Positions 1 to 60,311 of a stretch of 64,000 nt of DNA are shown in pieces. The notes below the pieces were generated by a model. The model was not told the DNA's origin. It saw nothing but the letters and a program-made list of their open reading frames with translations, and made no database searches. A program made the position numbers and the translations under genes. The DNA is from an uncultured Acidobacteriota bacterium. GTDB taxonomy: Bacteria > Acidobacteriota > Thermoanaerobaculia > Multivoradales > SZUA-115. Location of the stretch: assembly GCA_963805975.1 (NCBI GenBank), contig CAWDVR010000003.1:64001-128000 (forward strand). Reading direction: 5' to 3'. The stretch's first letter is position 1. Each line of letters starts with the position of its first letter.

Positions 1-978
1 CACGTCGGCCGTCACCTCGGCCTCGCGGGTGAGGTCGCCGTCGGCGACGCCCGACACCTCGTCGAGCAGCTTCACGATCGAGCCCTGGATGCTGTCGCGC
101 TCCTCGCGCGACTGGATCAGCGACAGGGTGTTGTCGAGCATGGCGTTGAGCGAGCGCGAGGTGACGCCCAGCTCGTCTCTGCCCAGCACCTCGGCGCGGG
201 CCCCGAAGTCGCCGATGCCGATGCGGGTGAAGGTCTGGCTGATCGAGTTCACCTGCCGCAGCACCAGGCGGGCGAGGTAGAAGGCCGCGGCCAGCGCCAG
301 GATGGTGAGCAGGATGCCGGTGATGCCGATGTTGCGGCGCACGGCGGCGAGCACCGTCTCGGTGGAGGCGAAGGCGCTCTGGGCGCTGGTGTTCGAGAGG
401 TCGGCGAACTTCTTGTTGACCGCCACCAGGTCGGCGAACCCGCGCTCGATCTCGCTGCTGCGGTCGGCGAGATCGGCGCGGCCGATCACCTGGCCGGCGA
501 GCAGCCGCTGGCGCAGCGGCGCGAGCTGGGCATAGGCGCCGTCGATGCGATCGAGGTAGGTCTGCTCGTCCTTCTGCAGGCTCGACTGGCCGAGGCGCGC
601 CAGGGCGGCGGTGAACTCGGGGCTCACCGTCGTCTTCCATTCCGTCTTGTACTTCTCGTGCAGCTTGACCATGCCCTCTTCCTCGCGCCGCACCAGGGCC
701 TCGAGCGTGCCCCGCTCGCTCGCCGAGAGGTCGGCCCGGGTGAGCTGGTCGAGCGCGCCGGTCAGCTTCTCGCGGTGCAGGTTGGCCTCGTCGAGGTCCA
801 TGATCGGCAGCAGCATGAACCCGTAGAGGTTGTCGAACTCGTACTTGAGGACGTCGATGCCGTCGCGCTTGATGGCGCCGGCGCCGGTGAGCGCCACGCC
901 GGCGATCAGGATCACGGCGAGCGGCGTGAGCACGGCGATCAGGGTGAACTTGCCAAAGAGCTTCAGGTTGCGAAACAC
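1..978 (-). CDS. pilJ: Methyl-accepting chemotaxis protein, PilJ-like (5' part; runs off the window)
   Basis: Not in ORF track. GTG at 978 after AAGGAG; reads MFRNLKLFGKFTLIAVL (TM), a 4-helix sensor region, a second TM, HAMP, then IQGSIVKLLDEVSGVADGDLTREAEVTADV, typical of PilJ-type MCPs. Confidence 0.85.
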   Translation of the reverse strand, partial: MFRNLKLFGKFTLIAVLTPLAVILIAGVALTGAGAIKRDGIDVLKYEFDNLYGFMLLPIMDLDEANLHREKLTGALDQLTRADLSASERGTLEALVRREEEGMVKLHEKYKTEWKTTVSPEFTAALARLGQSSLQKDEQTYLDRIDGAYAQLAPLRQRLLAGQVIGRADLADRSSEIERGFADLVAVNKKFADLSNTSAQSAFASTETVLAAVRRNIGITGILLTILALAAAFYLARLVLRQVNSISQTFTRIGIGDFGARAEVLGRDELGVTSRSLNAMLDNTLSLIQSREERDSIQGSIVKLLDEVSGVADGDLTREAEVTADV

Positions 979-1069
979 GGACGTCTCCTTTCAGGCGAAG
1001 GAACGAGGACGATGGTGGCGCCGCGGCCCGGCGGCTGCACGACGCACGAGCTGCCGGCGCAAGCCCGCA

Positions 1070-1696
1070 TCACGCGGCCTCCACGGCGCCCAGCGCATCA
1101 GCGGCCAGCAGGCGCGCGACGTCGAGCACGGCGACCACTTCGCCGCCCTGCTCGACGACGCCGGTGAGATAGATCGACGCGGGGTCGTCCAGCAGCGCCG
1201 CGGCGCGCACCACGCGCGAAGCCGCGAAGCTCGCCAGGCCCGCCACCTGGTCCACCACCAGGCCGGTGTAGGGCTCGGGGCCCGCGCCGCGCACCACCAG
1301 CAGGCGCCCCATGGCGGGGCCCTCGGCGGCGGCGCCCAGGAAGAGGGCGAGGTCGACCACCGACAGGATCTCGCCGCGCAGATTGATGACGCCGAGCACC
1401 CAGGGCGGCAGGTGGGGTACCGGAGTGACGGGCGGCACCGACCCGACCTCGATCACGGCGCCGATCGGCACCGCGTAGCGGGCGCGGCCGAGCGAGAACA
1501 CGATGTAGCGCTCGAGGGCGGGCTCTTCCGGCGCCGGCGGCGGCCATCCGCCCGCGTCGGCCCCCGCGTCGATTCCTGGGCCGGCGCCGCGGGCCTTGCC
1601 GGGCTCCGCCACGGGGTGGCTCGCCACCTCGGCGTCGAGCGCGCCCAGGAGATCGGCCAGCGCGTCGGCCGAAGAGCCGTGATCGTCGTCGTTCAT
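1070..1696 (-). CDS. cheW: CheW/PilI-like coupling protein
   Basis: YIVFSLGRARYAVPI...VTPVPHLPPWVLGVINLRGEILSVVDL motif; ATG at 1696 after GGAGGGAG. Confidence 0.9.
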   Translation of the reverse strand: MNDDDHGSSADALADLLGALDAEVASHPVAEPGKARGAGPGIDAGADAGGWPPPAPEEPALERYIVFSLGRARYAVPIGAVIEVGSVPPVTPVPHLPPWVLGVINLRGEILSVVDLALFLGAAAEGPAMGRLLVVRGAGPEPYTGLVVDQVAGLASFAASRVVRAAALLDDPASIYLTGVVEQGGEVVAVLDVARLLAADALGAVEAA

Positions 1697-1724
1697 CGGG
1701 TGTCTCCCTCCTCCGGCCTCGCGG

Positions 1725-2090
1725 CTACAGGTAGCGGGCCGCGGCGGCGCGCAGCTCGTCATCCGAGAACGGCTTCGTCAGGTACTCGTCGGCACCCTGC
1801 TTCAGGCCCCAGAAGCGGTCGCTGTCCTGTGTCTTGCTGGTGACCAGCACGATCTTGATGTCCTGGGTGTCGGGAGCGGTCTTCAACTGGCGGCAGACCT
1901 GGAAGCCGTTTTTCTTCGGCAGCACCACGTCCAGGAAGATCAGGTCCGGCCGCCCGCTGGCCGCTTTCTCGAGCGCTTCCTCGCCATCGGCGGCGGTCAG
2001 CAGGCGGTAGCCGCGGGGGGCGAGCGCCTGGGTCATGAGCTTCAGGTCGGTCGGGCTGTCGTCGACTAAGAGGATGGTCTGGCCGGGCAT
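1725..2090 (-). CDS. pilH: Single-domain response regulator, PilH-like
   Basis: LLVDDS, LDVVLP, VTSKTQDSDRFWGLKQGADEYLTKPF (PilH-type C-terminal signature). Confidence 0.85.
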   Translation of the reverse strand: MPGQTILLVDDSPTDLKLMTQALAPRGYRLLTAADGEEALEKAASGRPDLIFLDVVLPKKNGFQVCRQLKTAPDTQDIKIVLVTSKTQDSDRFWGLKQGADEYLTKPFSDDELRAAAARYL

Positions 2091-2111
2091 CGAGCTCTCC
2101 TTCAGAATCCT

Positions 2112-3002
2112 TCAGAAAGGGATGCGGTCGATCGTGAGCGCCAGGTCGCGGAGGAAGACGCCGTAGCTCTCCCGCCACTCGCCCGCGGCGGTGGCCGACC
2201 GCAGCCGGCGGCCGGAGAGGTCGAGGAAGGTCTCGAAGACCAGGCCCATGGCGCGGGCGATCTCCTGGAAGGAGCGGCTGCGCTCGGCCTCGTCGGTGGC
2301 CCACAGGCGATAGAAGCTGGCGGCGTTGGCCGTGGAGAGCCGGTTGGCCTGGGCGGTCAGCACGCGGGCCATCGGGTGCTTGCCGACGGCGCTCTGGAGC
2401 ACCGGCGCCAGGGCGGCGCTCGAAGCCTCGTCCCCCCGGCCCCCGGCGCTCTCGGTGAAGGCGACCGCCTGGTTGATCATGTCGGCCAGCATCTCGAGGG
2501 CGACGAGCGGCCGCTTCCTCCCCTTTTCCGCCAGCCGCGACATGCCCTGCTCGAGCCGCGACAGCAGGAGCATCAGCTCGCCTTCGAGCGCCTCGTCGCT
2601 CTGCTGCTCCGGCCAGGCGAGCTCGTCGTTGGCGATCGGCAGGGTCGGCCCGAGGTCGGCGGCCATCAGCCAGGCGCTCTCCGCGCGGTCGCGCACGCTC
2701 TCGTCCATCTGGCGGGCCGCTTCGAGGAGCAGGTGGCGCCAGCCGGTGCGGATGCTGTGCGCCGGCGAGCGCACGCGGTCGGTGATGTGGAACGTGCCGT
2801 CCTGCCAGGTGAGGAGCTGGAACGCCGCCTCCTCGCCCTGGAGCGGGCCCAGGAGGGCGTGGACGATCTCACCCTCTTGCAGGTAGAGGACACCTTCCTC
2901 GCCGCGGCGCCGCACCACCAGGCCCACCGAGCGCCGTTCCGTACAGAGGAGTTGCACGACGCTCGAGATCTCGAAGTCCTTGATGTCGCCCTCAACCGCC
3001 AT
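2112..3002 (-). CDS. DUF4388 (PatA N-terminal-like) domain protein
   Basis: N-terminal EGDIKDFEISSVVQLL...GVLYLQEGEIVHA...GEEAAFQLLTWQDGTF...LLLEAARQMDE pattern. Confidence 0.8.
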   Translation of the reverse strand: MAVEGDIKDFEISSVVQLLCTERRSVGLVVRRRGEEGVLYLQEGEIVHALLGPLQGEEAAFQLLTWQDGTFHITDRVRSPAHSIRTGWRHLLLEAARQMDESVRDRAESAWLMAADLGPTLPIANDELAWPEQQSDEALEGELMLLLSRLEQGMSRLAEKGRKRPLVALEMLADMINQAVAFTESAGGRGDEASSAALAPVLQSAVGKHPMARVLTAQANRLSTANAASFYRLWATDEAERSRSFQEIARAMGLVFETFLDLSGRRLRSATAAGEWRESYGVFLRDLALTIDRIPF

Positions 3003-4023
3003 GCGCTTCTCGCGGGCAGTGCTGCTCCACCGCTTTCACCAGATGGGCAGGGTCGAAGGGCTTGGTGATGTAGTCGGTGGCGCCGGCCAGGCGGCCGCGC
3101 ACCTTGTCGAAGAAGCCGTCCCGGCCCGAGAGCATCACCACCGGCACGCCGCGGGTCGCGGCGTTGGCGCGCACCAGCTTGCAGAGCTGGTAGCCGTCCA
3201 TGTGCGGCATCGAGACGTCGAGCAGGATCAGGTCCGGCACCGCGTCGTCGAGCTTGGCGAGAGCCTGGAGCGCGTTGCCGGCCACCAGCACCTCGTGGCC
3301 CTGGCGCTCGAGGGCGACGCCGACGATCTTGAGCACCGTCGGGCTGTCGTCCACCACCAGGATGGTGCGTCGCGGCTGGCCTGGAGCGGCCGGCCGGCGC
3401 AGGTAGGCGGCGGCGCGGACGGCCGCCTCCTGGCGGCGGGCGAGCTCCTCGATCGCCGCCGAGAGCCTGCCGTCCTCGGGCTTGAGCTGGCGTGCCACCC
3501 GCAGCCGGGTCAGGCCTTCGTAGGTCCGCCGCAGGTTGAGATAGCCGAGGGCGATCGCCAGGTGCACCTCGAAGGTGACGGCGTCGCCGGAGAGCCCCTC
3601 CAGCCGTTCGAGGGCGCCCTTCAGGATGTCGCCGTCCGCCTCGGTGTTGGCGAGCAGGGAGTCGAGGTCGTCGAGCCGCACCACCGCCCGGCACTGCGGG
3701 CACTTCGCGACCTCGACCAGCGACTCGCCGTGACAGAACGGGCAGCGCCAGTGCTTACGTTTCTGGGCGCTGCCGGCCCGCACCCGCTCGAGCCAGCTCC
3801 GGGTGCGCTCGTCGGCCGGGTTGACGGCCAGCGCCTTCTCGAGAAAGGAAACTGTCTCGCCGCGGTGCGTCGCCACCGAGGCGAGCCACAGCCAGGCCAG
3901 CTCTTCGTTCGGTGCCAGCTCGGCCGCCGCCAGCAGCTTCTCTCTCGCCGTCGCCTTGTCCCCCTGCTTGGCGGCGGCGATCCCCGTCTTGAGCAGATCC
4001 CGTTGTCGATTCACAGCCAGCAT
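2992..4023 (-). CDS. PilG-like response regulator with N-terminal TPR and CxxC..CxxC zinc ribbon
   Basis: C-terminal receiver with MLSGRDGFFDKVRGRLAGATDYITKPF (PilG signature); TPR AWLWLA; CPFC and CPQC. Confidence 0.85.
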   Translation of the reverse strand: MLAVNRQRDLLKTGIAAAKQGDKATAREKLLAAAELAPNEELAWLWLASVATHRGETVSFLEKALAVNPADERTRSWLERVRAGSAQKRKHWRCPFCHGESLVEVAKCPQCRAVVRLDDLDSLLANTEADGDILKGALERLEGLSGDAVTFEVHLAIALGYLNLRRTYEGLTRLRVARQLKPEDGRLSAAIEELARRQEAAVRAAAYLRRPAAPGQPRRTILVVDDSPTVLKIVGVALERQGHEVLVAGNALQALAKLDDAVPDLILLDVSMPHMDGYQLCKLVRANAATRGVPVVMLSGRDGFFDKVRGRLAGATDYITKPFDPAHLVKAVEQHCPREAHGG

Positions 4024-4051
4024 GCTCGCGCCTCTCTCTCAGTGTCCCGGC

Positions 4052-4207
4052 TCAGGTGCGGACGAACTTGTCGATCCCTTCCTCGCGCCACACCCGCAGG
4101 GTCATCTGGTCCTTGGGGTCGATGGGCACGCCGATGGCGTTGACCGGTACGTTGTGGTTCCTCTGGATCTCGATCCAGGTGCGCTTGATGGCGGGGTCCA
4201 ATGGCAT
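4052..4207 (-). CDS. 51-aa small protein MPLDPAIKRTWIEIQRNHNVPVNAIGVPIDPKDQMTLRVWREEGIDKFVRT
   Basis: Hand-translated, below the ORF-track cutoff; GAGGGA upstream of ATG, GC-rich third positions, fills the gap between two co-oriented genes. Confidence 0.85.
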   Translation of the reverse strand: MPLDPAIKRTWIEIQRNHNVPVNAIGVPIDPKDQMTLRVWREEGIDKFVRT

Positions 4208-4225
4208 GGTGATCCCTCGGGAGAT

Positions 4226-5527
4226 TTAGGAGACAGCTTCGAGCCGGGCATCGGCCAGAAGGTCGTGGAACGAGCCGGCGCCGGCGTCCAGGCGGCCTTC
4301 GTCGGCCACCACGGCGAGCGCCGCGCGCTCGAGGCTCGGGGCGAGCCAGGTTTCGGCCAGCTCTACCAGGTGCCGGCGCCGGACCTGGGAGAGGGCGGTC
4401 ACCACCTCCTCGTCCGGCAGCGGCCGGCCGAAGTAGAGCTCCTGGGTGGCGAGGCGGCTCATGCGGGTCGCCGAGCTCTCGGCGGCGATCAGGTGCTGGT
4501 TGGTGAGCGCGGTGACCGCGCGCGCCAGCTCTTCGTCGTCGACCGGCTCGTCGCCGCTCGCCAGCCGGGCGAGCTCGGCGGCGACCAGCCGCAGCACCGC
4601 CGGCAGGTTCTCCGGCGTGGTCGAGCCCTCGAGCAGCAGGACGCCACCCTGGGCGTAGGCCTGGTAGGAGCTGCCGATGGCGTAGACCAGCCCGCGCTCC
4701 TCGCGCACGCGCCGGAAGAGGCGCGAGCTGATGCCGCCGCCCAGCAGGCGGTCGAGCACGTGCAGGCGGTAGCGCTCGGGGGCGGTGAAGGCGAAGGCCG
4801 GCAGGGCGAGCGCGAAGTAGGCCTGCGAGATCGGCGCGTGGTGAACCACCGTGCCGCCGCGATGCGGGGCCGGCTGCGGGCGGCGCGGCGCGCTCTCGCC
4901 CAGGAGGCGCCAGAACGCGTCCCGGCTCTGGGCCACGAAGTCGGCGTGGTCGAGGTGGCCGGCGGCGGCGATCAGGGTACGGGCCGGGGTGTAATGGCGG
5001 GCCGCGAAGTAGATGGCGTCCTCGCGCGTCAGGCCGCGCACCGTCTCCGGCGAGCCGGCGATCGGCCGGCCCATCGGGTGCCCGCTCCAGGCGAGCTGCT
5101 TGACCAGATCCTCGGCGAAGTGCGGGGGCGAGTCGCGGCGCGCCTCGAGCTCGCAGGCGATGGTCTCCTTCTGCCGCTCGACGGCCGTCTCCGGAAAGGT
5201 GGAGCTCAGGAGCACGTCACCCAGGAGGTCGAGCGCGTGGTAGCGGTAGTCGTCGAGCACGTGGGCCGTCAGGCAGGTGTAGTCGCGGGTGACGAAGCCG
5301 CCGACCTGGCCCCCGGCACCGTCCATCAGCCGCGCGATCGCCAGCGCATCCCGGCTCGCCGTGCCCTGGAAGAGCAGGTGCTCGACCAGGTGGGCGATGC
5401 CGGAGGTGCCGCTCTCCTCGTCGGCCGGGCCGGCGTCGACCAGGACGCCGATCGAGATGGACCGCGAGCGTGGCATGGCCTCGGTGATCACCCGGATGCC
5501 GTTGTCGAGGACCGTTTTCTCGATCAA
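4226..5527 (-). CDS. M16B (pitrilysin/insulinase family) zinc peptidase
   Basis: Inverted zinc motif GIAHLVEHLLFQGT, downstream Glu ligand, LGGGISSRLFRRVREERGLVY; TTG start; no signal peptide. Confidence 0.92.
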   Translation of the reverse strand: MIEKTVLDNGIRVITEAMPRSRSISIGVLVDAGPADEESGTSGIAHLVEHLLFQGTASRDALAIARLMDGAGGQVGGFVTRDYTCLTAHVLDDYRYHALDLLGDVLLSSTFPETAVERQKETIACELEARRDSPPHFAEDLVKQLAWSGHPMGRPIAGSPETVRGLTREDAIYFAARHYTPARTLIAAAGHLDHADFVAQSRDAFWRLLGESAPRRPQPAPHRGGTVVHHAPISQAYFALALPAFAFTAPERYRLHVLDRLLGGGISSRLFRRVREERGLVYAIGSSYQAYAQGGVLLLEGSTTPENLPAVLRLVAAELARLASGDEPVDDEELARAVTALTNQHLIAAESSATRMSRLATQELYFGRPLPDEEVVTALSQVRRRHLVELAETWLAPSLERAALAVVADEGRLDAGAGSFHDLLADARLEAVS

Positions 5528-5652
5528 GAGTCAAACTCCCGCTGTCGCGAGCAGTTGGCGTCGATCAAGACACTCTAGTATGTTAAAAATACTAGAAATG
5601 TCGTGATACGAGCCGGTGCACTTCAGGCGTAGCTAGAAACAAGGCAAGACTC

Positions 5653-5669
5653 AGCAAGAGGCATACCAG
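5653..5669 (-). promoter_or_regulatory. Sigma54 -24/-12 promoter for the M16 peptidase-chemosensory operon
   Basis: Minus strand CTGGTATGCCTCTTGCT with exact GG-N10-GC spacing, about 125 bp upstream of the first gene. Confidence 0.75.
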
Positions 5670-5740
5670 TGAAGGGGACCGGGAAGGTTCGCTCTTTGCG
5701 CCCATTCTTGGCCACGCGTTGAAACGAATTCGTGTCACGT

Positions 5741-5777
5741 TGTCTGAGATTCAGACACACTGTCTGCTTTTAGGAGG
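5741..5777. promoter_or_regulatory. Putative enhancer (UAS) pair for a sigma54 activator
   Basis: Perfect palindrome TGTCTGA-GAT-TCAGACA (5741-5757) plus a degenerate copy starting TGTCTG at 5761; centred about -107 and -127 from the predicted start. Confidence 0.65.
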
Positions 5778-5782
5778 ACTGA

Positions 5783-7087
5783 TTGAGCCGAAGGAAACTT
5801 CTCTCGACTGCTGCGATCTGTGGGTTGGGGATCGGCCTGCTGGCGGCCCGGCGGCGCAACGCGCAGCTCGCACGCGAGAACCTCGCCCTGGAGAAGCGCC
5901 AGCGGGAAACCGACGAGGAAGTGCGGCTCCGGCAGGCGATCAGCAATGCGGCGCGCGAGTGGCAGCTCACCTTCGACGCCGTCGAGTCCGTGCTGCTGGT
6001 GATGGACGGCGAGGGTCGTGTGCGGCGCATGAACCGTGCCGCGAGCCTTCTCGCCGGCCGGCCCTACCGCGAGCTCCTCGGCCTCGAGGTGGGGGCGATC
6101 GGCGCCGGCGAGCCGTGGGCGACGGCCGCCGCCCTGGCGGCGGAGGTGGCGCAGGACCGGGCCTCGCGCACGCTTTCCGCCGTCGACCCGGCCGCCGGCA
6201 CCACGTGGGATTTGTCAGCTACGGTCTCTGGGTCGGCCACCGTTTCGGGGTCTGCCACGGTCTCGGGATCGGGTACGCGGGCTTCGGGTGCAGGGCACGG
6301 GGGGGCCGACCTGGACCACGTGATCCTGGTGGCGCGCGACGTCACCGGCCTGGTGCGCCTCCAGGAGTCGCTGCACAAGAGCGAGGTGATGTCGGCCATG
6401 GGCTCACTGGTGGCCGGTGTGGCCCACGAGGTCCGCAATCCCCTGTTCGGCATCTCGGCGGCGCTCGACGCTTTCGAGAGCCGCTTCGGCGACCGCGAGG
6501 ACTACGGCCGCTATCTCTACGTGCTGCGCAGCCAGCTCACCCGCCTCAACCGGCTGATGACCCAGCTCCTCGACTACGGCAAGCCGCCGCGGCTCGAGGT
6601 CGGCGCCGAGAGCCTCGCCGAGGTGCTGGCGGAGGCGATCGTCAACTGCTCGTCGCTCGCCGGCCAGCAACAGGTGGAGATCCAGCCGCGGCTCGCCGCC
6701 GATCTGCCGCCGGTGCCGATGGACCGCCAGCGCATGCTGCAGGTGCTCCAGAACCTGCTCGAGAACGCTATCCAGCACAGCCCGGCGCCCGGCGTGGTGG
6801 AGGTGGAAGGTGGGGTCGAGAACGGGACGGAGGCTCCCGCCCTGGTGTTCGCCATCCGCGACTCCGGCCCCGGCTTTCGGCCGGAAGACCTGCCCAAGGT
6901 CTTCGATCCCTTCTTCACCCGCCGCCGGGACGGGACCGGTCTCGGGCTCTCGATCGTCCATCGCATCGTCGAGCAGCACGGCGGAGCGATCCGGGCCGGC
7001 AACCGCGACGGCGGCGGCGGCGAGCTGCTGCTGCGCCTGCCGCTCGCCGAGCCTGGCACACCGGCCCTGCCGGCGAGCGGGCGATGA
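5783..7087 (+). CDS. NtrB-type sensor histidine kinase (short TM, PAS, HisKA, HATPase)
   Basis: GVAHEVRNPL H-box, NLLENAIQHS N-box, DSGPG, FDPFFT, GTGLGLSI; AGGAGG before TTG. Confidence 0.92.
   Translation: MSRRKLLSTAAICGLGIGLLAARRRNAQLARENLALEKRQRETDEEVRLRQAISNAAREWQLTFDAVESVLLVMDGEGRVRRMNRAASLLAGRPYRELLGLEVGAIGAGEPWATAAALAAEVAQDRASRTLSAVDPAAGTTWDLSATVSGSATVSGSATVSGSGTRASGAGHGGADLDHVILVARDVTGLVRLQESLHKSEVMSAMGSLVAGVAHEVRNPLFGISAALDAFESRFGDREDYGRYLYVLRSQLTRLNRLMTQLLDYGKPPRLEVGAESLAEVLAEAIVNCSSLAGQQQVEIQPRLAADLPPVPMDRQRMLQVLQNLLENAIQHSPAPGVVEVEGGVENGTEAPALVFAIRDSGPGFRPEDLPKVFDPFFTRRRDGTGLGLSIVHRIVEQHGGAIRAGNRDGGGGELLLRLPLAEPGTPALPASGR
6215..6268 (+). repeat. 3 x 18-bp coding tandem repeat (SATVSG)3 in the kinase PAS region
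   Basis: tcagctacggtctctggg / tcggccaccgtttcgggg / tctgccacggtctcggga. Confidence 0.85.
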
Positions 7088-8442
7088 GAGCCCGCATCCT
7101 CCTGGTCGACGACCAGGACGCGATCCGCTTCGGCATCCGCGGCTATCTCGAGGCCAAGGGCTACGAGGTGGCGGAAGCCGCTACGCAACGCGAGGCCCTC
7201 GAGAAGCTGGCGGCGCAGCCGTTCGCGGCCGCGGTGGTCGATCACCACCTGCCGGACGGCAATGCCCTCGAGCTCCTGGCCGCCTTGAAGGAGGCCCACC
7301 TGCGGCTGCCGGTGGTGATCCTCACCGCCTACGGCTCGATCGACCTCGCGGTGGCGGCGATCCGCGAGGGTGCCGAGCACTTCCTGACCAAGCCGGTCGA
7401 GCTCTCGGCACTCGAGGTGCTTCTCGAGCGGGTGCTCGAGAACCAGCGCAACCGGCAGAAGACGCTCGCCGGGCGGGCCGGCGGCTTGCGGCGCCCGCTC
7501 GACCCGTTCGTGGGCACGAGCCGCGGCATCCGTGAGCTCAGGGCCCAGGCCGCCAAGGTGGTGGACAGCGAGAGCCCCCTCCTGATCCAGGGCGAGACCG
7601 GTTCGGGAAAGGGCGTGCTCGCCGCCTGGCTCCATGCCCATGGCCCGCGGGCGGACGAGGCCTTCGTGGACCTGAACTGCGCCGGCCTGTCCCGGGAGCT
7701 GCTGGAGAGCGAGCTCTTCGGCCACGTCAAGGGCGCTTTCACCGGCGCCGCGTTCCACAAGGCGGGCCTGTTCGAGGCCGCGCACCGCGGCTCGGTCTTC
7801 CTGGACGAGATCGGCGACCTCGAGCTCGGCGTCCAACCCAAGCTGCTCAAGGTGCTGGAGGAGAAGCGGTTCCGCCGGCTGGGCGACGTCAAGGACCGCA
7901 GCGTCGACATCCGGCTGATCTCGGCGACGCACTGGGACCTCTTCGCCCAGGTCGAGCAGCGGACCTTCCGCGGCGATCTCTACTACCGGCTGGCGGCGAT
8001 CCCGCTGGCGATCCCGCCGCTGCGCGAGAGGCTCGAAGACCTGCCGCAGCTCGTGGCCGACATCCTCGAGCGGCTGCGCCTGGAGCTGGGGAGGGGGGAG
8101 GTGGAGCTGACCGCCGAGGCCATGAAGGCGCTCGCGACCTACCGCTGGCCGGGCAACCTGCGCGAGCTGCGCAACGTGCTCGAGAGGGCCATCCTGCTGG
8201 CCGAGGGCGAGGTGGTAGACGCCGGCGACCTCCGCTTCGCGCAAGTCGCGACGGCGACCGAGGGGTTCGACACCCGCCTCACCCTGGAGCAGATGGAGCG
8301 GCGGCTCATCGAGCGGGTGCTCACCGAGGAAGGGGGCCGCGTGGCCCGTGCCGCCGAGCGCCTGGACGTGCCTCGCAGCACTCTCTACCAGAAGCTCAAA
8401 CGTTTCGGGATCGGCTTTCCAGAATCTGGACAGTCGTCCTGA
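7084..8442 (+). CDS. NtrC-family sigma54-dependent response regulator (REC-AAA+-Fis HTH)
   Basis: ATGA overlap with kinase; GETGSGKG, ESELFGHVKGAFTGA, FLDEIG, WPGNLREL, C-terminal HTH. Confidence 0.95.
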   Translation: MRARILLVDDQDAIRFGIRGYLEAKGYEVAEAATQREALEKLAAQPFAAAVVDHHLPDGNALELLAALKEAHLRLPVVILTAYGSIDLAVAAIREGAEHFLTKPVELSALEVLLERVLENQRNRQKTLAGRAGGLRRPLDPFVGTSRGIRELRAQAAKVVDSESPLLIQGETGSGKGVLAAWLHAHGPRADEAFVDLNCAGLSRELLESELFGHVKGAFTGAAFHKAGLFEAAHRGSVFLDEIGDLELGVQPKLLKVLEEKRFRRLGDVKDRSVDIRLISATHWDLFAQVEQRTFRGDLYYRLAAIPLAIPPLRERLEDLPQLVADILERLRLELGRGEVELTAEAMKALATYRWPGNLRELRNVLERAILLAEGEVVDAGDLRFAQVATATEGFDTRLTLEQMERRLIERVLTEEGGRVARAAERLDVPRSTLYQKLKRFGIGFPESGQSS

Positions 8443-8627: not shown

Positions 8628-8643
8628 TGGCACGTGGCTTGCG
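8628..8643 (+). promoter_or_regulatory. Sigma54 -24/-12 promoter
   Basis: TGGCACGTGGCTTGCG, near-consensus TGGCAC-N5-TTGC. Confidence 0.8.
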
Positions 8644-8678
8644 GGTCTATGATGCCGGTGCTCCTACCCGGCCAACCC

Positions 8679-9053
8679 ATGCCACGGCTTCTCGTCGTCG
8701 ATGACGAGATCCCGATCCTCTTCGCTCTGCGCGACTTTTTTTCCGCCCGCGGGTATGCCGTGGACTCGGCCGGCGAGCGCTCCACGGCTGAAGAGCTGCT
8801 CGTGGCGCGGCCTTACGAGCTGATGATCGTCGACCTCCGGCTGTCGGCCGCCGAGGCCACCGAGGGCCTCGACCTGGTGGCTTTCGCCCGCCATCGGCGG
8901 CCGGCCATGCGCATCCTGGTGCTGACCGCCTACGGCTCGCCCGAGGCCGAGGCGCGGGCCCTGGGGCTCGGGGCCGACGCCATGCTCGGCAAGCCCATGC
9001 CCCTGCCGGAGCTGGCGGATCTGGCCGACCGCCTGGTGAGCGAAGCGGCCTGA
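8679..9053 (+). CDS. Single-domain response regulator
   Basis: LLVVDDE, IVDLRL, LTAYG, KP; start chosen downstream of the sigma54 promoter. Confidence 0.85.
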   Translation: MPRLLVVDDEIPILFALRDFFSARGYAVDSAGERSTAEELLVARPYELMIVDLRLSAAEATEGLDLVAFARHRRPAMRILVLTAYGSPEAEARALGLGADAMLGKPMPLPELADLADRLVSEAA

Positions 9054-9106: not shown

Positions 9107-10414
9107 ATGCGGCCCCTGTCCTTCTACCGGATTCTCAGCGTCCTCGCCGTCCTGGCGCTCTTCGTCCTCCTGGCGGCGCCCACCGGCCCTCTCCAGCGCA
9201 AGACCAAACATGTCGAGAGGACGGCAGCCGGCGGCCGGCCGGTGATCCTCCGCGCCGAGTCCGCCGAGGTGACCGTGCGGCCCGGGACCGGAACCGAGGT
9301 CAAGGTGACGGCCGACCTCTCCATCGCCTCGCGCGACGAGAAGTGGGTGGCGGCGATGGAGCAGGGCTTCGACGTGGCTCTCCGCGAGACGGCGGCCGGC
9401 CTGGAGATCGAGCCCACCCGCCCGGACGAGGTGGGCGCGCGAGATCTCGGTCTCTTCCGGATCCAGATCCACGAGTCCTACGGCCTGAAGCTCCTGCTCG
9501 AGGTGCCGAAAGGCACCCGCCTCGAGATCGACAACCGCTATGGAGACGTCGCGGTGGCGGGCGTCGAAGGGGCGCTCGAGGTGGCCCTCACCTCCGGCGA
9601 CCTCACCGCCTCGAACGTGCGCGGTGGCACCGAGATCGACAATCGCTACGGAGACGTGGACCTTTCCGACCTCGAAGGCGACCTGGTGCTCGAGGCGGGC
9701 AGCGGCAACGTCACCGTCGCGGGGCTCTCCGGCGGGGCGAGGCTGCGCAACCAGTACGGCTCCGTATCGCTCTCCCGCGTCACGGGCCCCATCGAAGCCT
9801 CGGTCGAGAGCGGCAAGGTCGAGATCCGCGGCGCGGGCGCCGCCGTCTCCGTCAAGGACACCTACGGCGGCGTGACCATCGAGGACGCGAAGGGCGACGT
9901 CACGGTCACCACGCAGTCGAGCCCGATCCTTCTCGCGCGGATCGGAGGCAAGGCGAAGATCCACGGCGAGTACGGCTCGGTCGAGATCTCCGAGGTGGCC
10001 GGGCCGGTCGAGGTGGCGAGCGGCAGCGGCACGGTCAAGGTCGCGGGCGCCGCGGGCGAGGTCTCGATCCGCAACCAGTACGCCGGTGTCTCGGTGGAGG
10101 GGGTGGGAGGAGCGGTGACGATCTCCAACGAGAGCGGGGAGGTGGTGGTGACCGGGCTCGCGGGCCACGCTCTCGCCGCGCGCCACCAGATCGAGACCCG
10201 CTACGGCTCGATCGCCTTCGAGTGGCCGGCCGCCGCACCGGCGCCGGCCTTCAAGCTCGAGTCGACCTACGGAGAGCTCGAGAGCGACTTCCCCGGCACG
10301 CGCACCGAGCACGGCGAAACCGACGTCCTCGAGTCCGCTGCCTTGGAGGCGGGCTCGGCCGCGATGCTCGATCTGTCGGCCGTTAGCGGTGGTATACGGC
10401 TGAGGAAAGAGTAG
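9107..10414 (+). CDS. DUF4097 beta-strand-repeat exported protein
   Basis: N-terminal hydrophobic signal; repeated IDNRYGDV/NQYGSV/SGSGxV units; C-terminal LSAVSGGIRLRK. Confidence 0.85.
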   Translation: MRPLSFYRILSVLAVLALFVLLAAPTGPLQRKTKHVERTAAGGRPVILRAESAEVTVRPGTGTEVKVTADLSIASRDEKWVAAMEQGFDVALRETAAGLEIEPTRPDEVGARDLGLFRIQIHESYGLKLLLEVPKGTRLEIDNRYGDVAVAGVEGALEVALTSGDLTASNVRGGTEIDNRYGDVDLSDLEGDLVLEAGSGNVTVAGLSGGARLRNQYGSVSLSRVTGPIEASVESGKVEIRGAGAAVSVKDTYGGVTIEDAKGDVTVTTQSSPILLARIGGKAKIHGEYGSVEISEVAGPVEVASGSGTVKVAGAAGEVSIRNQYAGVSVEGVGGAVTISNESGEVVVTGLAGHALAARHQIETRYGSIAFEWPAAAPAPAFKLESTYGELESDFPGTRTEHGETDVLESAALEAGSAAMLDLSAVSGGIRLRKE

Positions 10415-10418
10415 GAGG

Positions 10419-10805
10419 ATGGAGACCAGGGACCCGGGCGCCGCCGCTCTTCTCCCCACCGTCTCCCGCATCTGCCTCGCCCTGCCCGAGGCCGTGTGCG
10501 AGCGCACGGGCAGCCATGCCACCTACCGGGTCCGCAAGAAGGTCTTCGTCTACTTCCTCGACAACCATCACGGCGACGGCATCGTGGCCGTCGCCTGCAA
10601 GACGGCGATGGGCGAGAACGAAGAGATGGCGAGGCGGGAGCCGGAGCGGTTCTATCTTCCGGCCTATATCGGGGTGAGGGGCTGGGTGGCCCTGCGGTTG
10701 GACCGTGGCGAAGTGGACTGGCCGGAGGTCGAAGCGCTCGCCACCGCGAGCTACTGCCAGGCGGCGCCCAAGAAGCTGGCGGCGTTGGTGGCGGCTCGAA
10801 GTTGA
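10419..10805 (+). CDS. MmcQ/YjbR family protein
   Basis: ICLALPEA...YRVRKKVF...FYLPAYIGVRGWVALRLD...ASY. Confidence 0.85.
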   Translation: METRDPGAAALLPTVSRICLALPEAVCERTGSHATYRVRKKVFVYFLDNHHGDGIVAVACKTAMGENEEMARREPERFYLPAYIGVRGWVALRLDRGEVDWPEVEALATASYCQAAPKKLAALVAARS

Positions 10806-56495: not shown

Positions 56496-58712
56496 CTAGT
56501 TGGGGACGCTGAAGGGAATCGAGTTCGACAGCGAGCGTCCGGTGGCCGGGTCGACCAGCGCCACCTTCAGCGTGTAGTGGCCCGCCGCGAGGCCCGAGGG
56601 CGCGAAGCGGGCGAGCAGCTTGTCGAGGCCGAGAATGCCGGTCGCGGTGCGCTCGACCAGCTCGAGCCGCCCGCCCGCCATGGTCTCGCCCACGGAGTTG
56701 ACCACTTCGCCGTCCAGGGTCACCGCGCCGTCGCTCAGGTTGTAGGCCACCAGGCAGAAGTTGGCGTCCTCGTCGCGGCCGATCTCCGGGCGCACGGCCG
56801 GCACGTACGGCTGGCCGTTGATGGTGAAGGGGTAGACCGTGGAGCTGCCGGCCCGGATGTCCTGCCGCTCCCGCACCAGGAGCCAGCGTCCGGGCTCCTC
56901 GAGGAAGAAGGGGGGCAGCATCACGGTCTCCTGCTGCTCGAAGGAGGGCACCGAGAGCGGCACGGCCTTGACCGCCGCTCTGCCGGAGGTGGCGTTGCGC
57001 ACCAGCACGCGTACCAGGTAGTCGCCGGGCGCCAGCTCCAGGTGGCCGTAGTACTTGAGGCCCTTGCCGGTCAGCAGCTCGCGCCCGCGGGAGATGTCGA
57101 GCTTCACCTGCTGCGTGAAGAAACCCTTCATCTCGCCCTTGCCGTCGGTGACGTAGACGTAGATCTCGACCGGCAGGGCGTTCTGGCCGTGGCCGGCCAG
57201 CAGGCTCTTGCCGTCGACCTCGACGATCACCGGCACGTACGCCCAGTCGCGGGTGGCGCGGAAGGCGGCGGCGAGCACGTCGAGCCCGAAGTCCGCGGCG
57301 GGTGCGGCGGTGGCGATCGCTTCGGAGGCCAGGAGCTCTTTCTCCAACGGATCGAGCTCGGAGAAGGGCCGTGGAGCGTAGTAGCCCTGGCGGTAGGAGA
57401 GCCGGCGGTCGTCACCCGCCCCCTTTTCCTTGAGCCTGTTCTCCTTGAGCTTGACCCGCAGGCGCCGGAACTCGCCGCTGGTCGCGAGCTCCGAGGGAGT
57501 GAAGGTCAAGAGGTAGGTCACGGAGCTGCGCTCCAGGACGCGCTCAAGCTGGGACTCGAGGTTGTTGGCGTCCTTGAAGAGCTCGCCGCCGGTCTCGTGG
57601 GCCATGTAGAACAGGCCCTCCTGACCGGAGTTGATCGGGCCGCCCTCACGCGCGCTGCCGCCCGCCCGCAAGCCACCGATGTCCACGGCCTGGATGACGC
57701 AGTCGGCGCGGCGGAACTCCTGCACCATTTCGCTCAGGCGGCTCTGCAGCTCGGTGTTGCCGTACACGTCGTCGGCATCGACGCGGTACATCTCGCCGCG
57801 TTGGATCTGGAGCTGGCGCTGGTCGCCGCTCGAGATGTCCGCGAGCGGCGTTCCCGTGAGCAGCCGGCTGTCGAAGCCCTCGGAGAAGAGGACGATCTGC
57901 TTGCGCCCGTCGATGGCGCTCATCTTGCGCGCCATCTCGCCCAGCGAGCGCGAGAAGGACGTGATCTGGCTGCGCTTGAAGCTGCGCTCGCTCTTGTCGA
58001 GCTGCTCGGCCAGGATCGCCATGTGCTCGCGCACCGCGGCGCTCCGGTCGCCCCTGATGTCAGGGTTGGTCGAGTTGACGGCCTGGCTCGAATCGTGGCC
58101 GGGCAGCCGGGTGGGCTCGATCAGGAACCGCAACGGGTCGAGCTCGGTGCTGCGGAAGAGACCCAGGCTGTCGATCGCCTGCGCCACCTGCGCGCGGTCC
58201 GGGGTGAAGGTGACCACCAGACGCGGCCCGGTCTCGAGGGAGTATGTGGCGACAGCCACGAGGTCAGTGGGGTGCATCTGCTGCAGCACGAAGTCGCGCG
58301 CGGCGACCCGCGCCTTGAGCACTGCCGAGGGATTGGAGAACGAGATGTCGAAAAGCAGCAGGAAATGACGGCGGGAAGAGGAGGGGAAGTGCCGCTCGAC
58401 GGGCGACGGCAGGCCCTCGACCGAGGCGAGATCGATGACCTCGAAATCGGTCAGCCTTTGTAGCTTGCCCTCGTCGTAGATCTCGAAGTCTTCGGCGGTC
58501 AAGCCCGGCACCGGCGTCCCGTTCTTGTCGACGACGTTGACCGGGACCTCCACGGCGACGACGCGCGCCGTTTCGTCGAAGCCCCGGCCCTTGCGCGCCG
58601 GTTGCGCAGGGGCCGAGTCTTGGGCGGCGCTGGCGGAGTGAGCCGGGGCGCCCGCGAGGGCCGCGCCCACGACTGCAATCGAAAGCATCAGGCTAGCGAT
58701 GCGATGACCCAT
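56496..58712 (-). CDS. Exported VWFA-related acidobacterial domain protein (paralogue)
   Basis: EVPVNVVDKNGTPVPGLTAEDF, MIDAS DISFS, GRKQIVLFSEG, ETGG; start 58712 or 58724. Confidence 0.88.
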   Translation of the reverse strand: MGHRIASLMLSIAVVGAALAGAPAHSASAAQDSAPAQPARKGRGFDETARVVAVEVPVNVVDKNGTPVPGLTAEDFEIYDEGKLQRLTDFEVIDLASVEGLPSPVERHFPSSSRRHFLLLFDISFSNPSAVLKARVAARDFVLQQMHPTDLVAVATYSLETGPRLVVTFTPDRAQVAQAIDSLGLFRSTELDPLRFLIEPTRLPGHDSSQAVNSTNPDIRGDRSAAVREHMAILAEQLDKSERSFKRSQITSFSRSLGEMARKMSAIDGRKQIVLFSEGFDSRLLTGTPLADISSGDQRQLQIQRGEMYRVDADDVYGNTELQSRLSEMVQEFRRADCVIQAVDIGGLRAGGSAREGGPINSGQEGLFYMAHETGGELFKDANNLESQLERVLERSSVTYLLTFTPSELATSGEFRRLRVKLKENRLKEKGAGDDRRLSYRQGYYAPRPFSELDPLEKELLASEAIATAAPAADFGLDVLAAAFRATRDWAYVPVIVEVDGKSLLAGHGQNALPVEIYVYVTDGKGEMKGFFTQQVKLDISRGRELLTGKGLKYYGHLELAPGDYLVRVLVRNATSGRAAVKAVPLSVPSFEQQETVMLPPFFLEEPGRWLLVRERQDIRAGSSTVYPFTINGQPYVPAVRPEIGRDEDANFCLVAYNLSDGAVTLDGEVVNSVGETMAGGRLELVERTATGILGLDKLLARFAPSGLAAGHYTLKVALVDPATGRSLSNSIPFSVPN

Positions 58713-58838
58713 GGCTGATTGCACAGTGTAGTCCTTCTCTCAGATGGTGACAATTGCCACGGCAGGTCGATTTGCCTGCGCTGGTAAAGTGCGCGGTGCG
58801 TTCTGCCGGCTCAAAAAATTGGAGGACGATCCATCACG

Positions 58839-60311
58839 ATGGAGAAGCACAAAAGAGCCCGCGCGCGCATCGAACGGCAGGTGACGGACCCCGTCGCGAA
58901 GCATGCCGTTCCCTCGCCGCGCGTGGCGGCGGCGCTGGTCTTTCTGTGGGCCTGCCTGGTGCACGGGGTGGCGCTCGCCGCCAACCCTCTCGCCCGCTCC
59001 CCGGTCTCGGCCTTCTTCTTCGGCGACGGCCCGATCTACCTCGAGCAGGGGCGGCGCCTGGCCGAGGGGCTGCCGCTGCTCAACTTCGGCCTGCCCTACC
59101 ATCCGCCGCTCGTGGCGTGGCTGTGCGCGCCTCTGTGGTGGATCTTCGGGGAGCCGGCCCCGGTTTTCCTGACGGCCAAAATCGCGATGATCGCGCTCTG
59201 CGCCGCCGGGTACGCGCTCTTCTACCTGCGGCTCCGTGAGCGGTTGCCGCAGGCGCTCCTCGTCTGCCTCTTCCTGCCGCTCAACTTCGGTGAGCTGGCG
59301 CTGGCCTCGACAGTGTCGAGCGAGATGGTCTACCGGGCCCTGCTCCTGGTCGTGCTGCTCCTGGGCTGGCGCCTGCCGGTGGTGGGCGGTGTCCTCCATG
59401 CTCTGGCGGCGCTGGCGCGGCCCGAGCACTTGGGGTTCGGCCTGCTCGCCGCCGCGGGCACGCTTTTCTGGGTGCCGGAGAGAAGGCGCTTCGTGGGGCT
59501 GGCAGCCGTCGGCGCCGCCTTGGTGCTCGTCCCCTACACCCTGGTCAATGCGCGCACGCTCTCGCACTACAACCGCGCCCATGCCGCCGAGCTGCGCGAG
59601 CCGTTGCCGGTTTGGGTGCCGATCTCGTTCTATGGCCCCCTCAACTTCGCACTCGCCCAGCGCGAGGAAGACATTCACTTCTCGCGCTCGACTCTGCCGC
59701 CGGCGCCCGGTGACCCGGCCGCTCTCGACCCGACGTTTCCGCCGCACAACGAGGTGATCGTCGACGGCTATCGCCTGGGATTCGCGGCCATCGCCAGCGA
59801 GCCCGGCCGTTTCCTCTCCCGGACGGCGGCCAAGCTTGGCCACTCGCTCTCGGCACTGGGCTTCGGATGGACCTGGCGCGACCTTCCCAGGGCCGGCGGC
59901 TGGGTGCGGCAGCCGGTCGACGTGGCGAGCGCCGAGAGCCCGTTCTACCTGGGCTGCTGCCTGGTGCTCACCGGCCTCGGGGCCTGGGCGCTGCGCGGGG
60001 ATCGCCGCCTGCTCGCGGCCGGGCTGGCGCTCCTCCTCTATCGACTCGGTGTCAACGCCGTCTTCTTCCCCTATCTGCGGGGGATGATGGTCATCGCGCC
60101 CCTCTACCTGGCCTTCCAGGTGGAGGGACTCGCCTGGCTGCTGCGCAAACATGCCGGGCGCGGCCTCGCGGTGATCCTCGTCCTGCTCTCGACTTACCAC
60201 TTGACGACCGTGTGGACCGGCAGCGGCGAGCTGCGGCTCTCGGGGGAGCGTTCCGCCGGCGGCACCATCCTCGACGACCGGCCGGTGGTGATCGAGCGGT
60301 CCGGCGACTGA
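58839..60311 (+). CDS. Multi-pass membrane protein, probable GT-C-fold glycosyltransferase
   Basis: About 11 TMs; D..Y after TM1, YHPPL, SE, LARPE motifs as in ArnT/PMT-like proteins. Confidence 0.6.
   Translation: MEKHKRARARIERQVTDPVAKHAVPSPRVAAALVFLWACLVHGVALAANPLARSPVSAFFFGDGPIYLEQGRRLAEGLPLLNFGLPYHPPLVAWLCAPLWWIFGEPAPVFLTAKIAMIALCAAGYALFYLRLRERLPQALLVCLFLPLNFGELALASTVSSEMVYRALLLVVLLLGWRLPVVGGVLHALAALARPEHLGFGLLAAAGTLFWVPERRRFVGLAAVGAALVLVPYTLVNARTLSHYNRAHAAELREPLPVWVPISFYGPLNFALAQREEDIHFSRSTLPPAPGDPAALDPTFPPHNEVIVDGYRLGFAAIASEPGRFLSRTAAKLGHSLSALGFGWTWRDLPRAGGWVRQPVDVASAESPFYLGCCLVLTGLGAWALRGDRRLLAAGLALLLYRLGVNAVFFPYLRGMMVIAPLYLAFQVEGLAWLLRKHAGRGLAVILVLLSTYHLTTVWTGSGELRLSGERSAGGTILDDRPVVIERSGD

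Follow-up and report, generated by a model that had tools for sequence, protein, structure and literature searches.

The described chemosensory systems closest to the one analyzed in this study are the Pil-Chp system of Pseudomonas, with the components PilG, PilH, PilI, PilJ, PilK, ChpA, ChpB and ChpC, and the Tax/Pix system of cyanobacteria. A related operon begins within positions 1-5669 of a 64,000-nt window (the whole stretch of DNA analyzed, i.e. positions 64001-128000 of contig C3 of genome G000, an uncultured bacterium of the Acidobacteriota). It contains two genes that are additional to both known systems, encoding a zinc peptidase of the M16B family and a miniprotein of 51 amino acids (aa). 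Together they constitute a real, conserved and apparently undescribed accessory module on a known kind of system. We found no account, in the openly accessible literature, of a chemosensory operon with such a peptidase/miniprotein pair, although supplementary class tables could list such loci.

The original prediction for this DNA had described a tight, co-oriented run of genes behind a sigma54-type motif. All of the genes it named were found, in a single co-directional run on the minus strand (REC, receiver domain; TPR, tetratricopeptide repeat; MCP, methyl-accepting chemotaxis protein):

4226..5527, minus strand: M16B zinc peptidase (PF00675 and PF05193; HLVEH motif; H46-E49-H50, E126, R275/Y282)
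4052..4207, minus strand: conserved 51-aa miniprotein gene, without a match to any Pfam or NCBIfam family
2992..4023, minus strand: TPR / Zn-ribbon (CxxC-CxxC) / REC response regulator in a PilG-like position (REC match above the cut-off)
2112..3002, minus strand: PATAN protein (DUF4388 match) whose helical C-terminal domain is unclassified
1725..2090, minus strand: single-domain CheY-like REC protein in a PilH/PixH-like position (domain match)
1070..1696, minus strand: CheW (domain match)
1..978, minus strand: 5' part of an MCP gene with a GTG start at 978, which leaves the window (MCPsignal and HAMP)

The successive gaps from the peptidase gene to the MCP gene are 18, 28, -11 (an overlap), 21, 28 and 91 nt. 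The labels PilG for the 2992..4023 regulator and PilH for the 1725..2090 protein are provisional and based on motifs; a TPR_16 match in the former falls below the cut-off. The full-length chemoreceptor (639 aa) has two transmembrane (TM) helices and a periplasmic domain, and is the sole MCP found in genome G000. Beyond the window lie a gene for a 948-aa CheA (G000, C3: 60203-63049), containing two Hpt domains followed by dimer, HATPase, CheW and REC domains, and then a CheW-CheW gene. A contig from a public soil sequencing run spans positions 941-6000 (132 letters differ over 5046, approx. 97% identity), so that the gene order does not stem from misassembly. The closest named relative is a genome of the Thermoanaerobaculia (Acidobacteriota), with per-gene identities of 70-95%.

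Relationship to known chemosensory systems

Judged by its features rather than by published class models, the core of the operon seems to represent the type IV pilus (Tfp) class, and to lie between cyanobacterial Tax and Pseudomonas Pil-Chp. Over 319 residues the receptor can be aligned with 319 positions of the CtpM model, and it exceeds E. coli-type models by approx. 27 residues, which would make it a 40-heptad receptor in the customary heptad classification. The presence of two CheY-like regulators per cluster is a criterion of the Tfp class (PMC11181946), and two such regulators are encoded here (2992..4023 and 1725..2090). The likeness to Tax/Pix (PixG, of the PatA type, PixH, PixI, PixJ and PixL) extends to PATAN, CheW, MCP, a CheA-REC protein and a second CheW (PMC11181946), and also to the methylation enzymes being absent, in that none were found in G000. 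The differences from Tax/Pix, apart from the two additional genes, are that (i) PATAN is encoded by a separate gene and is not fused to the REC of the first regulator (a PATAN-TPR-REC fusion occurs in relatives from the Desulfobacteria), (ii) the first regulator contains TPR and CxxC pairs, and (iii) where the Tax/Pix receptor has photoreceptor domains, the one encoded here has a periplasmic domain and two TM helices.

The operon had originally been assigned to the Pil/Chp type. This is borne out by the order of its genes (two REC genes, CheW, MCP, a multi-Hpt CheA with a C-terminal REC and no P2, and CheW; PMC10782961) and by the CheA layout, but the locus is equally close to Tax, in view of PATAN and of CheR and CheB not being found. 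It differs from Pil-Chp in that neither CheR (PilK) nor the CheB esterase (ChpB) was found in G000, that CheA contains two Hpt domains only, and that PATAN and TPR are present. More precisely, CheR had no match in G000 (96% complete), and the CheB matches there concerned only the REC part. The two Hpt domains of CheA carry His48 and His172, and no P2 match was obtained; CheAs of the ACF class can have the same multi-Hpt/REC layout without P2 (PMC10782961). Among the 80 related loci described below, 16 encode CheR. We considered and rejected the idea that the module replaces methylation-based adaptation, since 13 of these 16 loci also have the peptidase.

Conservation of the peptidase-miniprotein pair

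A search of 185,579 species genomes yielded 302 pattern matches, 198 of which encode the miniprotein. The best 80 loci were analyzed, and for this reason the counts are biased toward close relatives. The original prediction was to be refuted if the peptidase-chemosensory linkage were unique to this genome; instead, a peptidase gene (42-83% identity of the products) was found immediately upstream of the miniprotein gene, on the same strand, in 59 of the 80 loci. In two others the peptidase gene is inverted or one gene off, and in 19 none is present within the flank. Chemosensory genes accompany the miniprotein in 70 of the 80 loci, and tandem miniprotein copies occur in seven. The loci represent four phyla: Acidobacteriota, Thermodesulfobacteriota, Chloroflexota and Planctomycetota.

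The pair retains approx. 50% identity across these phyla and through rearrangements, and it is unbroken where the rest of the operon has been reshuffled. Its position at the head of the operon, as first described, is typical for Acidobacteriota and Chloroflexota, but in Desulfobacteria the pair is located mid-operon, behind CheA-CheW. Cultured carriers include Desulfobulbus elongatus, D. propionicus, Desulfoluna spp. and Desulfonema magnum; in the last of these the two genes are approx. 11 kb apart.

In the reverse search, the peptidase served as query against metagenomes (4 of 64 parts covered; 80 of 577 loci retained). Ten of these loci encode peptidases at the level of the clade defined below. 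The miniprotein gene comes next in all seven of those with downstream DNA, the other three being cut off. Next to M16 genes from outside the clade, the miniprotein was found in none of the 70 loci of this search.

Two further observations concern the set of 80. Loci L015, L052 and L035 are filed as Clostridia or Verrucomicrobiia, probably in error; their sequences are near-identical to those of Acidobacteriota loci. The Chloroflexota operons (L004-L012, L016, L037, L062, L068) additionally contain a gene for a ParA-like ATPase (12 loci in total) and often one for CheR (the 16 loci mentioned above being the total for the set).

The M16B peptidase

The closest solved relative of the peptidase is the homodimeric BHP of Bacillus halodurans (PDB 3HDI; E 1e-59), which is also its best sequence match. 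The two share the numbering H46/H50/E126 and an R/Y pair on the same chain. A structural model of the peptidase is a two-domain half-clamshell (predicted local distance difference test score, pLDDT, 93.9) that superimposes on BHP with a template modeling score of 0.90 and a root-mean-square deviation of 1.7. The presence of an intact HxxEH motif, as originally reported, was confirmed: it reads HLVEH, and all of the 61 clade peptidases compared retain H46, E49 and H50, as well as E126 and R275 (Y282 in 60 of 61). The absence of any hydrophobic segment (maximum hydropathy 1.24) agrees with the cytoplasmic location assigned earlier. The enzyme presumably works as a homodimer.

The possibility, also raised by the original prediction, that such peptidases form a dedicated clade was upheld. 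In a tree of 108 rows, 67 chemosensory-linked peptidases (3 of these rows duplicate others) form a single branch with a stem of 0.87 and a support of 100 in the Shimodaira-Hasegawa-like approximate likelihood ratio test, the only measure of support used. This branch is separate from the 27 rows of housekeeping M16B enzymes, 24 of which adjoin pnp, and the result was unchanged after removal of eight long-branch rows and the three duplicates. The linked enzymes thus differ from BHP and the pnp-linked M16B peptidases in forming their own long-stem clade and in being encoded away from pnp.

They differ also at the position of BHP Asn76, where Gly prevails in the clade (63 of 64 rows) and Asn among the housekeeping enzymes (26 of 27 rows). 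We take this residue (in the NAFT strand) to participate in substrate binding in BHP. Together with many further clade-specific invariant residues, located on the surface or in the chamber, the Asn76Gly change points to a shifted specificity, or possibly to a lower activity. A housekeeping M16B is also present in four of the five Desulfobacteria carriers of the clade peptidase. No M16B of the pnp type was seen in G000 or in G002, a genome of the Desulfobacteria whose only match to the query is the chemosensory-linked enzyme.

A regulatory role for a bacterial M16 peptidase has a precedent in MdpA of Bacteroides (PMC13081976). Unlike the proposed homodimer, MdpA is heterodimeric, and it targets glycolytic enzymes and a transcription regulator; its abstract names neither a chemosensory operon nor a miniprotein (PMC13081976).

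The miniprotein family

All 139 scored candidates proved to be homologues of the miniprotein. An alignment of 65 sequences contains 13 invariant columns, and conservation extends over the entire length. Among codon differences, 97 are synonymous and 27 non-synonymous (in seven overlapping, not fully independent pairs), a ratio which indicates that the miniprotein is under purifying selection. From 1.84 billion representatives, a profile search retrieved 87 matches; approx. 10 of them were repeat proteins and were discarded. By its sequence, the miniprotein represents a new family.

The AlphaFold2 model is a compact helix-loop-helix, with the motif PVNAIG in the loop (pLDDT 93.4; predicted template modeling score 0.71). 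The product, earlier described as a 51-aa peptide, is thus encoded by a real conserved gene, but by prediction it forms a folded mini-domain rather than a loose peptide. No fold match to this model was obtained with Foldseek (best E 3.5) or with VIA-align (best Z 2.5 among 48,161 chains), and nothing above 0.79 was found in the ESM Atlas; these results do not show that the fold is new. A hydrophobic export signal was not seen.

In single sequences, the miniprotein domain occurs fused with a PilH-like REC, with TM segments plus a periplasmic binding protein, with TM segments plus an SLT-like domain, with FHA or with Smr (P0214, P0215, P0190, P0182, P0137). Two of these are membrane proteins with the miniprotein domain as their N-terminal part. 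Some of the single cases may be read-through products; P0214, a lone miniprotein-REC sequence resembling read-through of a stop codon, was accordingly rejected as proof of a partnership and is kept as a lead only. P0177 was rejected as a fusion with the C-terminal domain of the PATAN protein (hhalign probability 2.4). In the distant relatives P0140, P0136, P0151, P0171 and P0187, a low-complexity linker is followed by a C-terminal YRG motif, and one relative with this tail has a weak match to DUF4278, below the cut-off. We also rejected the Asn of PVNAIG as a stand-in for the lost Asn76 of the peptidase: distant members have Asp, Thr or Gly at this position, and a structural turn is therefore more likely.

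Distribution and loss of the module

The system as a whole is rare. It was detected in 2 of 251 genomes of its own phylum and, among 151 Anaerolineae, in the seed alone. In the 251 Desulfobacteria genomes (the class of G002, seed included; threshold for a CheA of this class, at least 430 bits), the class CheA is encoded by 11, the miniprotein by seven, all within these 11, and the clade peptidase by five, all within these seven. The nesting indicates a dependence of the miniprotein on the chemosensory system and, in turn, of the peptidase on the miniprotein. A clade peptidase without the miniprotein was never found (5/5 Desulfobacteria carriers and 7/7 complete metagenome loci). Conversely, chemosensory loci of G003, G004, G005, G431 and G518 encode the miniprotein, and no clade peptidase was found in these genomes.

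Four Desulfobacteria systems with neither gene have the same operon minus the pair, and three more divergent systems likewise lack it. Assembly gaps may inflate the pair-free group, because one of its members and a miniprotein carrier have nearly the same CheA. In a CheA tree of 72 rows, systems without the peptidase occur at scattered positions, a pattern compatible with several losses of an ancestral module.

In nine genomes the miniprotein gene is unlinked to the operon; the class CheA is encoded elsewhere in seven of them. The dispersed gene is an extra copy besides a full operon in G506, G507 and G511, and in G509 the peptidase gene is located inside the operon and the miniprotein gene elsewhere, behind a sigma54 activator gene. 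In a genome of the Thermoanaerobaculia (G508; L039: 8400-12700), the miniprotein gene and a sigma54 motif are placed between an ATP-grasp gene and a peptidase/PhzF-like gene pair; genes of both kinds are also found near the operon in G000.

Putative regulation and adjacent genes

The following features upstream of the peptidase gene may be involved in control of the operon:

5653..5668, minus strand: sigma54 (-24/-12)-type motif, TGGTATGCCTCTTGCT, 141 nt ahead of the peptidase start
5783..7087, plus strand: divergent gene for a PAS histidine kinase, possibly part of an upstream activator pathway
7084..8442, plus strand: divergent gene for a REC-AAA+-HTH sigma54 activator that may act on the operon promoter

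Scoring was against a typical sigma54 consensus. Of 1000 shuffled versions of the upstream region, 9 scored as well as TGGTATGCCTCTTGCT; the motif is conserved in the nearest relative (L002), where none of 1000 shuffles scored as high. RpoN is encoded in G000. It is probable that TGGTATGCCTCTTGCT acts as the promoter of the operon. The kinase and sigma54 activator genes also adjoin the operon in L002 and L033, and strong sigma54-type motifs are present 58-107 nt upstream of five miniprotein copies that are unlinked or head an operon.

In Desulfobacterales, miniprotein genes stand alone behind a -24/-12 motif, which is itself preceded by a gene for a PAS-PAS sigma54 activator (L025: 3431-5672, L040: 7154-9391, L041: 810-2946, L076 and L101). 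In L013, L036 and L076, a gene of this type stands at the head of the entire chemosensory operon.

Downstream of the activator gene of the window (plus strand) are genes for a lone REC (8634-9053), a DUF4097 protein (9107-10414) and a YjbR protein (10419-10805). At the other end, a gene for an LRV-repeat protein follows the double CheW gene on the same strand (L001: 11433-13109, minus; G000, C3: approx. 57433-59109) and may end the operon. On the opposite strand downstream (L001: 6590-11352, plus) are genes resembling, by the appearance of their sequences, those for an ABC transporter, an agmatinase and HypA.

Type IV pili as the probable output

Genome G000 contains five PilT-family genes, and no flagellin match was found in it. 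In Synechocystis, PATAN domains bind PilB and PilC (10.1101/2021.06.11.447907), which suggests type IV pili as the output here as well. It is likely that the operon of G000 influences type IV pilus activity through its PATAN protein. The C-terminal helical domain of this protein (2112-2620, minus strand) has no Pfam family, and its look-alikes in the ESM Atlas are unnamed (scores up to 0.83). PilT is also encoded by 7 of 10 other carriers examined. Control of cAMP by the operon is unsupported, though CyaB, FimL and FimV were not searched for.

Possible role of the module

We consider it an even chance that the pair is a two-gene add-on to a Tfp-like operon, in which the miniprotein binds signalling proteins and is cut by the M16B peptidase, so that its lifetime is limited. 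The sigma54 promoter would switch the operon on, and the miniprotein would then be a dose-dependent effector acting on a receiver-domain regulator or on the array, until its clearance by the peptidase homodimer created a pulse or a timer; in G000 the output would be type IV pilus activity via the PATAN protein. The miniprotein is placed as the effector, and the peptidase as its control, because the peptidase was never found without the miniprotein, whereas the latter often persists without the peptidase and tracks the chemosensory core. A receiver-domain regulator is its common neighbour in reduced loci, and the tandem and additional dispersed copies, as well as the separate promoters, fit a dose-dependent factor. 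Somewhat more tentatively, these systems may represent a proteolysis-timed chemosensory subclass, with a miniprotein acting on phosphorelay or polarity regulators and a specificity-shifted M16B as the off-switch.

Several observations weigh against cleavage of the miniprotein as its means of control, or against parts of the model. The chambers of M16 peptidases accept substrates of up to approx. 65-80 residues, a size range that favours the miniprotein as a substrate, but that of BHP measures approx. 10,000 cubic angstrom (PMC12731061); a chamber of this size is close to being too small for a folded 6-kDa protein, which may need unfolding. The replacement of Asn76 by Gly makes the catalytic competence of the enzyme uncertain. 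The module is dispensable, as at least 4 of the 11 Desulfobacteria class systems show neither gene. G508 encodes the miniprotein, yet CheA, MCP and the clade peptidase were not found there, and in Zavarzinella the miniprotein is accompanied only by a TPR-REC gene; the miniprotein may therefore have a role outside the array. As to the output, PilT had no match in three Chloroflexota carriers. Type IV pilus control, which the original prediction cited for Pil/Chp systems, is hence not general, however likely it is for G000, and the output in Chloroflexota may differ.

It is unlikely, in our estimation, that the two proteins are separately acting accessories of one class of system, the peptidase handling another small substrate or binding non-catalytically and the adjacency reflecting co-regulation. 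The Asn76Gly change, the separation of the genes in D. magnum and G509, and the occurrence of the miniprotein without the peptidase agree with this explanation, but a clade peptidase was not found in any miniprotein-free genome, and the metal-binding and catalytic residues are all retained.

A little less probable still is a miniprotein that serves as adaptor, activator or inhibitor of the peptidase, the true substrate being another protein of the pathway. The very close adjacency of the genes (59/80), the clade-specific invariant residues of the peptidase, the stable predicted fold of the miniprotein and its domain fusions, which hint at a binding module, would suit such a role. Clamshell enzymes, however, accept short substrates rather than large folded proteins, and retention of the miniprotein without the clade peptidase in several lineages (the converse being unseen) argues against a pure adaptor. 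Of the two functions originally offered for the small protein, substrate or adaptor, the latter is thereby weakened in its pure form.

We regard as improbable the maturation of the miniprotein, as a precursor, to a short signal or cofactor peptide. PqqF/PqqA and AlbE-AlbF/subtilosin are precedents for peptide maturation by M16B enzymes encoded close to a short peptide gene, and the tandem copies and sigma54-type promoters could be accommodated. In contrast to those precursors, the miniprotein is conserved end to end, with no leader/core split, and is predicted to fold; the context is signalling and not biosynthesis. Moreover, it has no hydrophobic export signal, its domain is also fused to FHA, REC and membrane proteins, and no modifying enzyme or exporter is present among the neighbour clusters common to at least 4 of the 80 loci.

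Finally, it is hardly credible that the pair is a passenger of a horizontally moved operon, unconnected to chemosensory signalling, since its patchy distribution (2/251 in its own phylum, 1/151 in Anaerolineae) and its loss from some systems are outweighed by the identity retained over four phyla and through rearrangements, by purifying selection, and by the unlinked miniproteins, which still track the class CheA in 7 of 9 genomes.

Significance of the module

The physiological substrates of bacterial M16B peptidases are described as poorly defined (PMC12731061). The locus offers a candidate enzyme-substrate pair that is testable with two small recombinant proteins. Adaptation in chemosensory systems is based on receptor methylation and on phosphatases, and a dedicated small-protein/peptidase pair would give these pathways an additional layer of control. 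If proteolytic timing proves true, chemosensory pathways would gain their first integral M16 peptidase, and this enzyme would belong to the few bacterial M16B peptidases whose physiological substrate is known.

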